From positions 1 through 64,000 of the forward strand of contig JAWBTW010000001.1 of NCBI GenBank assembly GCA_039000165.1: a DNA stretch of 64,000 bases, read 5' to 3'. Below, piece by piece: positions 12,001 to 18,000 of this stretch (position 1 is its first letter; each line of letters opens with the position of its first letter). The position numbers were made by a program. This stretch comes from Candidatus Aenigmatarchaeota archaeon (lineage in GTDB: Archaea > Aenigmatarchaeota > Aenigmatarchaeia > CG10238-14 > SCSR01).

Positions 12001-15000
12001 TAGTTCTCCTTTTTCAGGCTTATAAGATATTTTTTTAAGGATTGGCCACTCTTCCATCAATTAATTTTAATTTTTTAAGTTTAAAATCGTTTTTTATTTT
12101 GATGCCGTTTTTCTCAGTAGTAACAACAGCAAAGAATGAAGAAAAGAAAATGATAGAAGAGGTTTTTCAAAATTGGGAACTAACAAAAGAAGTTTTTGAA
12201 AGGAAAAGGGATAAAAAAGTAGAATTTATAGTTGTAGACGCTGGTAACGATTCAGAAATTCCAAAGCTAAAAGATTCTTTTATCGTTAGCGAAAAGACTT
12301 ACCAAACTTATAGAAAATTTCTTTATTCTTCGGGTAAAATAAAGTATAAATCTTGGGATTCCCCAAGCATAGGAAGAAACCTTGGTTTTAAATATTGCAA
12401 AGGAAAAATAATTGTCTTCCAAGATATAGACACTCTTTTTTCAACAGGTACTGAACTTGATTTTAACTATATAAACCCAAAACTCGACAAGTATGAGAAT
12501 TACTTTGATGTTATGTACAAAGCCTTTAAAGAAAAACCAATAGTTGCAGCTTCACCTTCTGCAAGAGCTTGTGATGTTAAAAAAATTAGCAGGAGGTTTG
12601 GAATGATGGGGGAAAACTACATAGTTCAGTTATCTTGCAAGCTACCAACCTTAAAAATAGGAAATAATTTTGTAATCGGACCAAGCATTCCCGGGTTTAG
12701 TATCGTAGCTTTAAAAGATGTTTGTGATAAAATTTATGAAGAAAAAGGGTTTTTGTTTGATCCTGAGTTAGCCATAGCAGAAGACCATAAGTTTTCTAGG
12801 ATGTTAGGAGTGTATGGCAAAATTTCCTACGAGAGAAGGGCAGGAGTGTTTACCAGAACGGTTAAGAGAGTAAGTCCAGGTTTCGACCTATTAAAATCCC
12901 TTTTATACGCTACAAAATGGGTTTTACCCTATTTTTATCCTGATTTTTTCAAGTATAAGAAGCATGTTTTATCTGTTTAGCAAAAAGCTTTTAAATTAAA
13001 AGTGTAGAAGGATAATTATGGAAGAAGAAAAAATGGAAGAAGTGAATAAAAAGCTTGTCGGAAAAGTAACTCATTATTATGGAAAAATTGGAGTGGCAGT
13101 AGTTGAGCTTCAAGATGAGCTAAGTGTTAACGACGAAATAATAATTGAAGGTAAGGTTACTAAGTTAAGACAAAAACCTCCTTTGTCCATCCAAATAGAG
13201 CATAAAAATATTGAAGTCGCAAAAGCAGGCGATTCCATAGGCTTGAAAGTTAACGATAAAGTAAGAGAGAACGACCTGGTCTATAAAATAGTTCATTAAG
13301 TTACGAGCTTAATCTTTTTTGTTTATTTTTTCAATTTTTACATTACAATACTTAAAGGCAGGTATTTTTGAGACAGGATCTAAGATAGGACTTGTTAGCT
13401 CGTTAGCTCTTTTTTCTGAATAATGGTTGGGAATTGACAGCAATCCTTTTGTTACTCTACTGCTAACTTTAGCTTTAATTTCGAGCTTGCCAAAGGGAGA
13501 AGAAATTCTTATCATTTCTCCGTCTTTGATTTTAAGTTCTTCTGCATCCTCTTTGCTAATTTCGACATAAGCTTCTGACATAAGCTTATTTAAAGTATTA
13601 ACTTTTCTTGTCATTACTCCAGTGTTAAAGTGTTCAAGCCATCGATGAGAAATTAAAACATAAGGATAAGCGTGGTCCAAGCTTTGGGGTCCAACGTATG
13701 AAACAGGGTAGAAAACTGCTTTTTTTCCTGGATAACCAAAATCTTTTGTGTACAAGATTTTTGTTCCTTTTGGATTTTTCTTATCGCATGGCCATTGTAT
13801 ACCTTTTCTTCCAAGTTTTTTGTAAGTTATTCTAGAATACTGAGGTACAGCTTTTCTTATTTCATTAAAAATCTCTTCAGCTGAATTAAAGTTAAACTCA
13901 TCTTTAAAGCCCATCCTTTCTGCCAAAAGCTTTATTATCATCCAGTCCTCTTTTGCCTCTCCCGGTGGATTAACTGCTTTGTTGATTAGCTGAACCCTTC
14001 TTTCGCTATTTGTAAAAGTTCCGGTTTTTTCTAAGAAGTCTGCTGCAGGAAGAATTATGTTCGCAAGTTTTGCTGTTTCTGTCATGAAAATATCCTGGAC
14101 TACCAAAAATTCAAGGTTTTTTAAGTTTTCTTCAACTCTATTAGAGTTAGGTAGTGAAACTACTGGATTATTTCCAATTATATACATTCCAAGAATTCTT
14201 TCTGGAATGGCTTCTATCATTTCATACTCTGTTAATCCCTTAGAAATAGGTAAACCTTTTACTCTCCAGATTTTTTCGAATTTCCTTATAGTTTCTTGGG
14301 TTAAGGAAGAATAACCAGGATAAACATTGGGTAGAGCTCCTACATCACAAGCTCCTTGAACATTATTACATCCTCTTAAAGGATTAATTCCTGATCCTGG
14401 CTTTCCAAAATTTCCAGTAAGCAAAACCAAATCTCCTATCGTCAATATATTTTCAACACCATTACTATGTTGAGTCATTCCCATTCCAATCAGTACAGCA
14501 GCCCTCTTGGATTTAGCATAAAGCAAGGCTACTTCTCTTATAGTTTTCTCTTCAACACCAGTGATTCTGGAAATATAGCTGAGGTCAAACTTTTCTAGAC
14601 TTCTTTTAAATTGCTCAAAGCCTAAAGTCCTTTCTTTAATGAACTTTTTGTTTTCCAACTTTTCTTCAATTATAACCTTCATCAATCCAGTAATAAAAAG
14701 TATGTCAGTGTTTGGGTTAATTCTAACAAAAATGTCAGCTTTCTCTGCAGTTTCTGTTTTTCTAACATCTATAACTACAAGTTTTCCTCCATGCTTTTTC
14801 ATCTCTAAAATTCTTTCAAAACCTATAGGTTGAGTGACAGCAGGGTTTACACCAAAAGCCAAAATACATTCAGCTTCTTTCAAATCTTCATAGCTGTTTG
14901 TCATGGCTGACTTTCCAAGAATTTCGTACAAGCCAGTCAGAGTAGAAGCATGACATAAGCGAGTACAATTGTCTACGTTGTTGGTGCCTATAACAACTCT

Positions 15001-18000
15001 GGCAAACTTTTGAATCAAATAATTCTCTTCATTGGTGCATTTGGTTGAGGAAAAAATCCCTATGGAGTTTTTTCCGTAAGTGTCTCTTATCCTGGTGAAT
15101 TCTTCCGCTATTATATCTAAAGCTTTTCTCCAAGAAATTCTCTCAAACTTATCCCCTTTCCTTATCAAAGGATACTTTAATCTTTCTGGATGATTTGTCA
15201 TTTCCAGTAAAGTTGCCCCTTTTATGCAAAGTCTCCCTTTACTAATGGGATGATTCTTTCGCGGAGCTATTTTAACTGCTTTACCTCCCTTGATTTCAAC
15301 TTCTATTCCACAACCAACCCCGCAATAAGGGCAAACCGAGAAAACTTTCATTAAATTTAAATTTACTCTTTTGTTTTTAAATTGATATATGGAAGTTAGT
15401 TGTTTGATCCTCGCCGGTGGGAAATCCTCAAGACTTAGAAACAAACCATTCCTTATCCTGAAGGGTAAACCTTTAGTAAGATATGTTTTTGATAACTTAA
15501 GAGAAATGTTTTCAGAAATAATTGTTGTTGTGAAAAGCGAAAAAGATAAAGAAAAAATGGAAGAGATAATTAAAAACTGTAAAGTAGTTGCTGATAAAAG
15601 CAAGATTTTTTCTCCTATGGCAGGAATAATTGCTGGAATAAAACATATAAAAAATAATTTTGTTTTTGTGGTAGCTTGTGATATGCCTTTTATTGAGAAA
15701 AAAACTGTAAGAGAACTAATTTCAAGAATCGACAAAAATGTGAATTGTGTGTGTTATGCTTATTCTCTGGATAAGTTCGAGCCCCTATGTGCGATTTATA
15801 AAAAAGAATTTCTACAGAAAATAGGTTTGGAAAATAGCTTGAATGAAGCTATAAGGAAAGAGAAAAATAAGGCTCTTGTACCCATAGTCAAGGAAACTTA
15901 CGAATTCTTTAATGTAAATACCAAAAAGGATTTTGAGGTTGCGGAAAAGCTACTCTCCTGAAAGGCTTGGTAGAATTCCTATTTTTTCTAAAAGAAACCA
16001 TAAAGTCAATATTAAAAGAAGTATTGAAGCTACAAATATGCTTGAAGAAATTTGCAAGCCCTGGAAATAGCCCCTTATTACTTCATAAACAAGGTAAAAT
16101 ACTATGATATCCCTTGCAAAAGAGCGAAAACCCATATAATTAATTATTCACTAATAAAAATTATGAAAATAGTGATTGGTTTGGGAGGTTCCATTTTAAC
16201 AAAAGAAATCACTTACGAAAATTTTAAGAAGTATGCAGATGTTTTAGTAAAATTGAAAGAGAAAGGTCATAGAGTGGTGGTGATTTGTGGCGGAGGTAAG
16301 ACATGCAGAGAGTATCAAAAAATAGCCAAGCAGTCTAATGCTACAGCAACTTTAACTGATAGAATAGGAATTATAGCAACAAGGCTTAACGCTTTGACTT
16401 TAATTTCGGTTTTGGGGAGCATGCCTTTCAAGATGTTGTTAAAAGTGTGGAAGAGTTAGAAAGTGTGCCAGAAGAGAAAATAGTTGTAGGTGCAGGAATA
16501 TTCCCAGGTCATTCTACAGATTTTGATTCTGCAATATTTGCTGAAGCGGTAAGGGCTGATATTTTAATAAAAGCAACTAACATAGATGGGGTTTATACTT
16601 CTGACCCAACTCAAGATCCTAGCGCCAAGAAGCTTGAAAAATTAAGTTACGAGGAACTAGAAAAGATTTTGTTAAAGAATAAGCAAGGACCAGGAGAGTA
16701 CAAGCTTTTTGATTTGTCTGCTGCGAAGATAATAGCAAGGTCGAAAATAAGAACTATAATAGTTGACGGTAGTGATCCAGAAGAAATTTTAAGAGCAGTT
16801 GAAGGAAAGCATAAAGGAAGCGAAGTTTTAAGTTTAAGCTAAAAATAAATTATTAGAAAGCCCTGGTAGCTCAGTTGGTTAGAGCGCATAGCTAGCGTAA
16901 GCTTGGTAAGCATGAGGTCCCGGGTTCAAGTCCCGGCCAGGGCTTTACCGCACAACCACAAAATTCTTTTAATTTCCTTGTCCATAATCAACCTCTTCGA
17001 TTCTATAAAACCTAAACTTTACTTTGTTGTTTTCAAGAGCTTTAATCAAACTTTTAAGAAGCGTGAAGGAATCAACAAAAAAGCTTGCATATACTCTCTT
17101 TTCATAAAGCCAAACGTTCAACTTTTTAACGTAAATAAAAATGATTTCTGCTAATTTTTCCACACTAACCTTTTCGCACTCAATTTTTGCTAGCAGCATT
17201 TTCATCAGCCCCTATTATTTCGTAGACTCTTCCCCTTTTCTCTCCAATAGCCCTAACAAAACCTTTTGAGCAGAGGTTTTAGTTTCTAAAAGCTGTTTTC
17301 CTCGCTTAAGATAACAGCAAGCCTGTAGTTGTAATAGACACAGGGACAATATCAGAGAGAGCGGAAAGCAGAGAAGCGACAAGGAAAAGGAGATGAGGAA
17401 AAAGCTGTAGACACTATCTTATTGAAGCAGTTATACTATTGCCTGAAAAACCTTTTCTACAACACTCTCTCTTTTCCATCTACTCATGTAGTTCATAGAA
17501 GACAATATAATCTTCGGGGTCAGAAACGTTCTCATAGTGTTTCTCTTTGAACAGTTGAGCTACCCTGACATCTAGTAACTTCTTCTTCACTAGCTTACCA
17601 CAGACCTCACAGTTGAAGTATCCAGTGTAGTGCGACTTGTCTTCACGAGACTCGGGAGACCAGAATGACCAGATGTTTGTGCTTATCCACCTTGGATATC
17701 TTTCCAACTTATGGACACCAAATAGACAAAGCACTCTTCTCAAACCATTCCACCTCCTAAATGTTTATGTTTTTAGTGAGATCTCAAAGTATAAATATTT
17801 GATGTTAGCGGAATTTCTGTGAACGTAAAAATCATTTGAATTTGTTCAACTTAAATGAACACCTATCGATGGAAAAGTTAAAATTATGGTCAAAACGAAA
17901 ATTTCAATTAAAGGTTATTTTTCAGCCTATAAGTTATTTTCTCGTTTTAAAACTTTCTATTTTTTCTTACTTCTCTTTAATTTTCTTCTTACTATTTTTG

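Follow-up and report, generated by a model that had tools for sequence, protein, structure and literature searches.

Gene organization of the locus

The window, which is the whole 64,000-nucleotide stretch of DNA analysed here, carries three adjoining genes, all under purifying selection as judged by dN/dS. The alpha subunit of a Cys-type formate dehydrogenase (FDH, 680 aa) is encoded on the minus strand (13309..15351) and starts with the ATG at 15351, an alternative 808-aa ORF with a TTG start being discarded. A MobA-like molybdopterin guanylyltransferase (190 aa) follows on the plus strand (15389..15961), and an AT-rich spacer of 37 bp (15352..15388) separates the two divergent starts. The third gene (15950..16135, minus strand) overlaps the 3' end of MobA by 12 bp, and its translation is a two-helix membrane protein of 61 aa from no known family, here called SMP. 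The head-to-head arrangement of FDH and MobA described in an earlier note on this DNA is confirmed; the two genes form a real pair, and the third gene at 15950–16135 was overlooked there.

The 37-bp spacer is probably a shared bidirectional promoter. Its counterparts measure 20–40 bp in 13 of 16 divergent FDH–MobA pairs, with TATA-like words placed inconsistently among pairs. No RNA data set covering the module was found. The locus is not a misassembly, since a contig from a second study spans positions 14372–16545 with one difference and no gap, and since the gene order is conserved in the relative G082. It is embedded among core genes and syntenic in relatives, in a genome (G000) that is 91.6% complete and comprises 25 contigs.

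Formate dehydrogenase alpha subunit

FDH matches TIGR01591 along its full length (residues 6–673) with 817.8 bits, above the cut-off of 666.25. The cysteines of the 4Fe-4S motif (C7, C10, C14 and C42) are present together with K44, the Lys near that cluster, and C133, H134, R326 and K44 align with positions 140, 141, 333 and 44 of E. coli FdhF, in agreement with the active-site Cys-His, Lys and Arg already reported for this protein. Formate dehydrogenases are recognised by a His next to the Cys/Sec and by an active-site Arg (PMC10385643), whose place is taken by Thr/Met in nitrate reductases. Canonical FDHs and E. coli FdhF conserve 75 alignment columns, of which 66 are retained here. Of the contact residues in the two MGD pockets of the FdhF structure, D202, R204, D429, D478, R581, H585, N662 and K679 are kept, while P203V, G221N, Q335C and E403N are changes; in the cofactor pocket, H181Q and T579S are further departures from E. 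coli FdhF.

The closest named relatives are Aenigmatarchaeota, and the best PDB match of FDH is the F420-FDH 9t1s (E 3e-195). The Aenigmatarchaeota group A, to which FDH belongs, is a separate clade with identities of 53–90% within the clade and at most 51% to other sequences, marked by RGCNN instead of RGQNN. The active-site Cys-His, Arg and Lys stay conserved in every group-A row covering those positions; D202, R581, N662 and K679 occur in 28/28 rows and D429 in 27/28. The dN/dS values of FDH are 0.053 and 0.064. The earlier count of 5 over-cut-off genomes among 101 of the phylum becomes 7 of 201 in the enlarged set. A quick tree, built without a clade test, gave no decision on a common origin of groups A and B. 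The pocket changes of group B were considered as a response to MobA loss, and this was rejected, since members labelled Bathyarchaeota, Thermoplasmata and Eisenbacteria carry them too. An apparent FDH–MobA fusion (P0017), made of about 45 MobA residues and an FDH without its N-terminus, was taken as a chimera and not as evidence.

MobA-like guanylyltransferase

The five best NCBIfam matches of the MobA-like protein are all MobA models, each below its cut-off (116.3 against 164 bits; 95.8 against 151.85), and the orthologues likewise score below the curated MobA cut-offs. The protein is nevertheless closer to MobA than to MocA (63.4 bits), CobY (47.2 bits), GlmU or IspD, and MobA accounts for 9 of its 10 best PDB matches. 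It keeps the LAGG motif, and K19, D69 and D98 align with the catalytic residues K25, D71 and D101 of E. coli MobA. The identification as MobA in the earlier note stands as regards the catalytic residues, and the sub-cut-off scores, unstated there, have to be added.

The gene is under strong constraint (dN/dS 0.05–0.13). Intact copies are found in 8 of 201 phylum genomes, always at a gene of the DMSO-reductase family, namely at 7/7 over-cut-off group-A FDHs and at one other member of that family. The adjacency seen before in three of three loci of relatives extends head to head across families; in metagenomes, MobA adjoins FDH or lies two genes off in all 11 loci with upstream sequence (13 loci in total), compared with 5 of 76 FDH loci of other lineages. 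In G150 and G014, both without FDH and SMP, MobA has decayed and lost LAGG and CDMP. Seventeen genomes possess a related FDH-like enzyme but no MobA.

Absence of the molybdopterin pathway

MoeA (MoeA_N) is absent from all 201 phylum genomes and MoaC occurs in one as an oddity at a contig end, with 11 of 14 controls positive in both searches; MoCF_biosynth is found only in the same contig-end gene (1/201; controls 13/14). The lack of MoaC and MoeA claimed previously is therefore upheld. The accompanying worry about genomes of 90–98% completeness is eased, neither gene being found in any of the 92 genomes that are at least 90% complete. MoaA (C-terminal model), MoaE, FdhD, ModA/WtpA and a TupA-type protein were not found in any of five genomes tested, and a tblastn search of G000 with E. 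coli MoaA–E and MobB returned generic radical-SAM matches only. Despite the missing pathway, FDH-like or AOR-family enzymes are present in 35 of 201 phylum genomes. At a few AOR loci (L041, L047), the GC content suggests foreign DNA.

The small membrane protein SMP

SMP has no Pfam match at E ≤ 1, its best Atlas match is at 0.79 and its best Foldseek match in the PDB has an E of 3.8. A hairpin is predicted (pLDDT 81); the prediction score for a tetramer was 0.01, which gives no verdict for or against. Conservation is concentrated on one face, near the ends of the helices and outside the membrane core, which argues against a simple pore, and dN/dS is 0.12–0.30.

Across the phylum, SMP is present in 24/35 enzyme-bearing genomes and 0/95 others, 17 of the 24 positives having belonged to the training alignment and kin not being independent. 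Outside the training set the counts are 7/18 and 0/95, and for unlinked copies alone 6/17 and 0/95. SMP adjoins FDH, AOR and GAPOR-like genes alike, while six copies are unlinked; its neighbours have unrelated folds and a shared cofactor. Since ferredoxin and the metal are likewise common to AOR, GAPOR and FDH, something other than the pterin may be what unites them. Eleven of the 35 genomes with such enzymes lack SMP; among them are G052, which is 90% complete, and G100, where only a 39-aa remnant is left. None of the 76 FDH loci from other lineages has SMP, but homologues occur in Woesearchaeota and Nanoarchaeia (MFH1637013.1, MDD4878801.1). Gene association makes SMP a candidate for receiving the cofactor, holding it or forming part of an importer.

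Electron partner and formate metabolism

No FDH beta subunit was found at the locus or elsewhere in the genome, nor does the locus contain a hydrogenase or flavoprotein as electron-transfer partner. Proteins with a ferredoxin motif number just 5 among 926 ORFs, and NiFe/FeFe hydrogenases are absent in 5/5 genomes tested. The pair of LUD-Fe4S4 and CCG was weighed as a possible beta subunit; CCG occurs in 14/26 FDH owners, is missing from all f7 genomes (n = 3) and is found in 12 non-owners. The formate channel noted earlier at C5:4226 is present as an FNT gene (C5:4226–5026).

Two uses of formate were set aside. FDH would not supply a class III ribonucleotide reductase, as the enzyme of G000 is of class II, its B12-dependent gene being paired with an adenosyltransferase-like gene on C13, and NrdD occurs in 2/5 genomes; FTR is found in 26 of 201 genomes, not including G000, and in only 4 of 26 FDH owners. 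As for purine or folate chemistry, PurP was not found in any of five genomes, nor did FTHFS exceed its cut-off there. Borrowed Fe-S clusters were also rejected, for although SufBD was not found, IscU is present in 5/5 genomes and IscS in G000.

Proposed salvage of the cofactor

The locus is best explained as a module by which a DPANN archaeon dependent on a host salvages its cofactor: metal-loaded molybdopterin would be imported and guanylylated by MobA, with SMP helping to receive or hold it (probability about 0.66). The earlier suggestion that molybdopterin is salvaged and only guanylylated here is supported by the absent pathway, the tie between MobA and the FDH clade, the decay of MobA in two relatives without FDH and the strong purifying selection. 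Points that weigh against the explanation are the sub-cut-off MobA scores, the altered pocket positions, the enzyme-bearing genomes without SMP, the 17 genomes with an FDH-like enzyme but no MobA, the instability of free Moco and the missing beta subunit. Judging by the missing genes, the cell has neither molybdopterin synthesis nor metal insertion nor a binding protein for molybdate/tungstate, and its cofactor must therefore arrive metal-loaded, as Mo/W-MPT or bis-MPT. It would come from the host or a neighbour; DPANN biology points to the host. SMP may serve its entry; a stand-alone pore is less likely here than a receptor or holder bound to the membrane on its cytoplasmic side, or than a small component of an import system. 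Next, MobA would add two GMP to yield bis-MGD, as suggested by homology and by the in vitro conversion of extracted bis-MPT with MobA and GTP to bis-MGD and active TorA, shown with E. coli proteins (PMC9103625).

Bis-MGD would then be inserted into FDH without FdhD. The sulfido ligand might arrive with the cofactor or derive from sulfide, chemical sulfuration of FDH being possible (PMC12140954), and the 4Fe-4S cluster would be built by the cell's own IscS/IscU. In the weakest step, the single-subunit FDH might trade electrons with the one small ferredoxin (63 aa). Formate oxidation (import through FNT, with reductant for anabolism and oxygen detoxification) is slightly favoured; in the alternative, FDH would reduce CO2 to dispose of electrons, and the formate would be exported.

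A wider proposal is only tentative and rather doubtful as a whole: SMP might be the first dedicated prokaryotic membrane component for Mo/W-cofactor uptake, taking metal-loaded molybdopterin from the host as an oligomer or as the receptor subunit of an import route. The whole phylum might then depend on borrowed cofactor for its Mo/W enzymes: unmodified in AOR/GAPOR types, guanylylated by MobA in group-A FDH, and possibly without nucleotide in the FDH-like enzymes of group B, which have no MobA.

Alternative explanations

Salvage may be right and SMP unrelated to pterin, acting as a membrane anchor for ferredoxin-linked enzymes or in molybdate/tungstate handling, with cofactor entering by direct cell contact or from digested host proteins; this has a minor but appreciable chance. 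The placement of the conserved SMP residues and the 11 enzyme owners without SMP fit it, DPANN cells and hosts can be in cytoplasmic contact, and C. elegans takes up protein-bound Moco (PMC7849362). However, an anchor role would require a single hairpin of 60 aa to bind both the DMSO-reductase and the AOR fold, which are unrelated; SMP is absent from all 76 FDH loci outside this group of lineages, and molybdate/tungstate uptake would be useless without MoeA or pterin synthesis.

It is unlikely that the enzymes are cofactor-free or metal-independent offshoots, like NuoG, with the MobA-like protein acting on another substrate. Orphan molybdoproteins were read so, as one option, in PMC6147048, and the sub-cut-off MobA, the absent FdhD and some changed pocket residues agree with this. 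Against it stand the conservation of the catalytic residues and of five pocket residues in group A, a dN/dS of about 0.05, and MobA, which stays head to head with FDH across families and decays upon FDH loss.

A non-homologous molybdopterin pathway of the phylum's own is quite improbable. Many unassigned radical-SAM and hypothetical proteins are present, and "new Moco biosynthetic components" are raised in PMC6147048, but a 0.8-Mb genome would have to provide substitutes for MoaA, MoaC, MoaE, MoaB/MogA, MoeA and metal uptake alike, and beyond MobA and SMP no gene recurs at the loci across families, as judged by eye and by targeted HMMs. Finally, the incomplete assembly and a few foreign-looking AOR loci could suggest pathway genes on unassembled DNA or a locus foreign to the bin, but this is very improbable given the 0/92 count, the syntenic core-gene context with its bridging contig, and group A being a clade of its own.

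Comparison with known systems and significance

The FDH resembles the cytoplasmic Mo/W-bis-MGD alpha subunits (E. coli FdhF 1aa6, T. kivui HDCR FdhF 7qv7 and the methanogen F420-FDHs 9t1s/7bkb) in its full-length TIGR01591 match, 4Fe-4S motif, Cys-His, Arg and Lys, but differs in its own RGCNN-bearing clade and in a genome where beta subunit, FdhD, hydrogenase and cofactor pathway were not found. Likewise, its MobA shares the fold family, LAGG loop and residues at K25, D71 and D101 with E. coli MobA (1frw), 2e8b and 3ngw; unlike those, it scores below the cut-offs, is the sole Moco-pathway gene found, lacks MobB and stands head to head with its client enzyme. A functional parallel is last-step-only cobalamin salvage by a corrinoid adenosyltransferase with a class II ribonucleotide reductase, where a finished core is imported and only the nucleoside part added, and such a pair lies on C13 of this genome. 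B12 is, however, stable and has known transporters, whereas Moco is labile and no transporter was found described in the literature.

In nematodes (C. elegans, PMC7849362; reportedly also Haemonchus contortus, PMC7619442), mature cofactor likewise crosses between organisms and is reinserted. Those cases are eukaryotic and have no nucleotide step, whereas here a prokaryote carries an enzyme for the final cofactor step and, as a candidate, a membrane component. PMC7849362 describes free Moco as unstable and its transport pathway between cells as unknown, and no description of a prokaryotic Moco transporter or uptake was found in the literature.

The earlier remark that no DPANN case was listed is too strong in that PMC11733289 suggests that DPANN, which lack MoeA, may obtain Moco from the host; no account of the FDH–MobA–SMP module was found. 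That source and PMC6147048 share the absence pattern and the general idea, but the text seen of both mentions neither Aenigmatarchaeota enzymes nor MobA coupling nor a co-occurring membrane protein; salvage is not among the readings of orphan molybdoproteins in that of PMC6147048 (2018), and the parts available of PMC8561730 and PMC7507113 hold nothing on such a module. Host supply of Moco to DPANN had been guessed in print.

For the movement of Moco between cells, the locus points to a candidate membrane component through its clear-cut distribution across genomes. Three small expressible genes make prokaryotic Moco salvage testable, and the module offers an explanation for orphan molybdoproteins. 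A minimal single-subunit FDH from a hot spring that matures without FdhD would also be of interest to CO2-reduction biotechnology. In addition, this DPANN phylum gains formate/CO2 chemistry; the main text of its published reconstruction (PMC8407114) is silent on formate as well as on molybdenum.

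FDH and its divergent MobA-like neighbour

At the formate dehydrogenase (FDH) locus, the ORF list gives a minus-strand frame of 808 aa; the real start is the ATG at 15351 on the minus strand, yielding an alpha subunit of 680 aa. In an NCBIfam profile search, it reaches 817.8 bits against TIGR01591 (cut-off 666.25) and exceeds no other family cut-off among the matches listed for 25 of 29 families. In a PDB comparison, the closest solved structures are formate dehydrogenases. Its 4Fe-4S cysteines, K44, C133-H134 and R326 have aligned counterparts in E. coli FdhF, and it keeps 66 of the 75 columns that are conserved across 33 canonical FDHs plus FdhF. 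At this locus, positions 14372-16545 are bridged by a contig from a second study, the closest relatives bearing names are labelled Ca. Aenigmatarchaeota, and dN/dS between the source genome (G000) and genome G082 is 0.053. The feature is real, and the FDH alpha subunit described in the earlier note is borne out by the score, the aligned active-site residues and the bridged locus.

The MobA-like gene (15389-15961) diverges from the FDH gene. The identification of its product as MobA, the guanylyltransferase, is supported by its five best profile models, all MobA, by nine of the top ten PDB matches, by the LAGG motif and by K19, D69 and D98, which correspond to the catalytic residues K25, D71 and D101 of E. 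coli; against it, every one of the five models falls below its cut-off. Its dN/dS is 0.054 between G000 and G082, with dS close to saturation. Synonymous distance to G082 is highly uneven when 5445-8046 is set against 12042-15961 (purM 0.06, purB 0.15, FDH 1.06, MobA approximately 3), suggesting recent exchange of the pur genes. Nearby, two tandem stand-alone V4R-domain genes (10988-12060) are retained in G082 and locus L217. The pyrH (UMP kinase) gene at 16163-16842 is split into two frames with a break near 16416, where contigs from three runs match the window and a diverged strain's contig carries one extra T; pyrH is intact in G082.

Mo/W enzymes and the MobA coupling in the phylum

Mo/W enzymes are not rare in the phylum. 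TIGR01591 matches 26 of 201 genomes, comprising seven over the cut-off and one split gene (group A, the clade of the window FDH), 17 shorter FDH-like enzymes (group B) and another DMSO-reductase-family enzyme in genome G027. In a quick tree, group A (including protein P0050) and group B have clade supports of 99 and 100, respectively. AOR-family genes occur in 12 of the 201 genomes, nine of which have no FDH-like gene; two are GAPOR-like, and the GC content of at least two suggests a foreign origin.

A MobA profile built from seven rows matches 10 of the 201 genomes (seven being training rows), namely all seven over-cut-off FDH owners, G027, and the FDH-less G150 and G014, whose MobA has lost the LAGG loop and the CDMP aspartate. 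These two relics (L038:822-1430 and L039:1450-2049) are open frames near pyrH, in genomes without FDH and the small membrane protein described below. No MobA is matched in the 17 group-B owners. A metagenome scan for the group-A motif gave 17 matches, 13 of them FDH loci; MobA is present in all 11 loci with sufficient upstream sequence (ten adjacent, one with two intervening genes; some near-duplicates). In other lineages, just 5 of 76 FDH loci have it within 4 kb. MobA tracks one client type and the coupling is strict. In protein P0017, a MobA N-terminal piece is joined to a truncated FDH; this probably reflects a chimeric assembly of the two head-to-head genes. In genome G052 (L057:10764-15096), a ferredoxin-thioredoxin reductase subunit and a glutaredoxin lie between FDH and MobA, adjoining NrdD/NrdG.

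The group-B subfamily (L009-L025; approximately 640 aa, motifs CCxRLCH and RGEVNVQG, 17 genomes without MobA) has 294 matches at E<=1e-165, a part of which carry the names Bathyarchaeota, Thermoplasmata or Eisenbacteria. The D202/R204 pair of one nucleotide pocket is missing in all 117 group-B rows, also in those with names from lineages outside DPANN. These enzymes may either take finished bis-MGD, the guanylylated cofactor, or use a nucleotide-free one. In L009 and L013, the group-B FDH adjoins genes that by eye are thioredoxin and thioredoxin reductase.

Absence of the cofactor pathway

MoeA_N is matched in none of the 201 genomes and MoaC in one, which also holds the only MoCF_biosynth match; controls are detected in 11 of 14, 11 of 14 and 13 of 14 for the MoaC, MoeA_N and MoCF_biosynth searches, respectively. 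The sole MoaC match, at the end of a contig (L029, G097 C20:1-559), is a fragment in which MoaC is fused to MoaB, probably misjoined or transferred, in a genome without FDH or AOR match. The lack of MoaC and MoeA noted earlier holds; the absences concern draft genomes, but MoeA or MoaC occurs in 0 of the 92 that are at least 90% complete. MoaA C-terminal domain, MoaE, FdhD, ModA/WtpA and TupA-type protein are found in none of G000, G082, G052, G001 and G024 (90-98% complete), and E. coli MoaA-E and MobB queries return only generic radical-SAM matches in G000. Fe-S assembly is present (IscU in 5/5 genomes, IscS in G000), making the Mo/W cofactor (Moco) the exception.

A small membrane protein following Mo/W enzymes

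The gene at 15950-16135 on the minus strand, missed in the earlier note, encodes a 61-aa membrane protein (SMP), modelled as a two-helix hairpin and without a match among Pfam, Atlas or PDB families. The 90% collection contains 168 homologues and the 50% collection 88; those named by organism come from Aenigmatarchaeota or, at greater distance, from Woesearchaeota and Nanoarchaeia (two of ten distant homologues looked up bore organism names). SMP adjoins FDH genes of both groups as well as the G027 enzyme, AOR and GAPOR-like genes. Among the 130 of 201 genomes tested, SMP is strongly matched in 24 of the 35 that own a Mo/W enzyme (19/26 FDH-like, 5/9 AOR-only; 11 families) and in none of the 95 that do not. 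Training rows came from 17 of the 24; outside the training set, SMP is found in 7 of 18 enzyme owners, six copies lying on a different contig from the enzyme (Fisher p 8e-7 for these seven and 5e-6 for the unlinked copies, values overstated because kin are not independent). In each of four genera (g1, g23, g28, g37), one genome has enzyme and SMP and another has neither. Of the 11 owners without SMP, two (G168 and G143) have contigs that stop at the locus and G100 keeps a 39-aa remnant. In other lineages, none of the 76 FDH loci carries SMP.

SMP is under purifying selection (dN/dS 0.09-0.30 across five pairs). Across 198 sequences, R4, R8, D9, W46, F47, E50 and G53 are conserved at 91-97% and Y14 at 82%, gathering on one face at both helix ends, with a variable membrane core. 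The face is predicted to be cytoplasmic by the positive-inside rule, and the arrangement is more in keeping with the binding of a phosphorylated aromatic ligand, or of a partner protein, than with a pore. In family f7 loci, SMP adjoins a 56-aa protein (L251:1337-1507; no NCBIfam match; similar ORFs in L137 and L221) that by eye resembles a small OB fold.

A putative salvage route

Bis-molybdopterin (bis-MPT) is directly usable by AOR-type enzymes, and DMSO-reductase-family enzymes require GMP. Since pterin synthesis, insertase and metal uptake are lacking, the cofactor would have to enter the cell already metal-loaded; MobA would then guanylylate the salvaged MPT cofactor before its insertion into FDH. 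SMP may serve cofactor receipt, because FDH, AOR and GAPOR have the cofactor, and probably also ferredoxin, in common. In PMC9103625, heat-extracted bis-MPT was 66% converted in vitro by MobA and GTP, giving active TorA, and extracted bis-MGD was stable for 90 min without oxygen; sulfide can activate FDH without its sulfurtransferase, according to PMC12140954. Salvage, guanylylation and insertion are therefore each chemically plausible, and we infer that they take place in this archaeon. The earlier reading, MPT salvaged from the host and only guanylylated here, is likewise favoured by the phylum-wide absence of the pathway and by the MobA-FDH coupling. B12 possibly follows the same last-step-only logic in G000, where (C13:9830-12151 and C13:15097-15657) a class II (B12) ribonucleotide reductase is followed by the only small ferredoxin, and a cob(I)alamin adenosyltransferase-like gene lies close by.

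Electron transfer and direction of reaction

A motif scan of 926 ORFs and Pfam scans of approximately 280 of 858 likely genes (chosen by motif and composition) in G000 gave one 63-aa ferredoxin, IOR, thioredoxin reductase, rubrerythrin, desulfoferrodoxin and a split LUD-Fe4S4/CCG protein. An FDH beta subunit was not among the proteins found, in agreement with the missing electron-transfer partner noted earlier. At C13:15761-18841 of G000 and at L057:4154-7186, genes for LUD-Fe4S4 and a CCG-domain protein cluster with one that by eye encodes a CcdA-like membrane protein, an arrangement resembling a split LdhH. The CCG domain occurs in 26 of 201 genomes, 14 being FDH owners, and the FNT channel in six; in G000 (C5:4226-7327), the channel gene immediately precedes those for GAPDH and PGK, all in the same orientation.

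Metabolism in G000 looks anabolic, with PEP synthase, FBPase and genes for purines and pyrimidines, and a query with ADP-forming acyl-CoA synthetase gave no match; we therefore lean slightly towards formate as the electron donor for FDH. Almost equally likely, CO2 reduction would take up the electrons from IOR in a cell without hydrogenase, NiFe or FeFe hydrogenase being found in 0 of 5 genomes.

Implications

Salvage followed by the last step only is a known logic, and FDH and MobA each belong to a known family. According to PMC11733289, DPANN have no MoeA, ModA, WtpA or TupA, and the cofactor is suggested to come from the host. Several hundred organisms have orphan molybdoproteins, which PMC6147048 would explain either as pseudogenes or Mo-independent forms, or through missing sequence or new components, and C. 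elegans takes up protein-bound Moco by a route described as unknown in PMC7849362. The terms formate, molybd-, tungst- and fdh do not occur in the main text of PMC8407114, and no account of the FDH-MobA pair or SMP was found among mainly openly readable main texts, although supplementary tables could list these FDHs. With the strict MobA coupling, and with a family-less membrane protein that accompanies Mo/W enzymes of three kinds across a pathway-less phylum, prokaryotic Moco uptake becomes directly testable.
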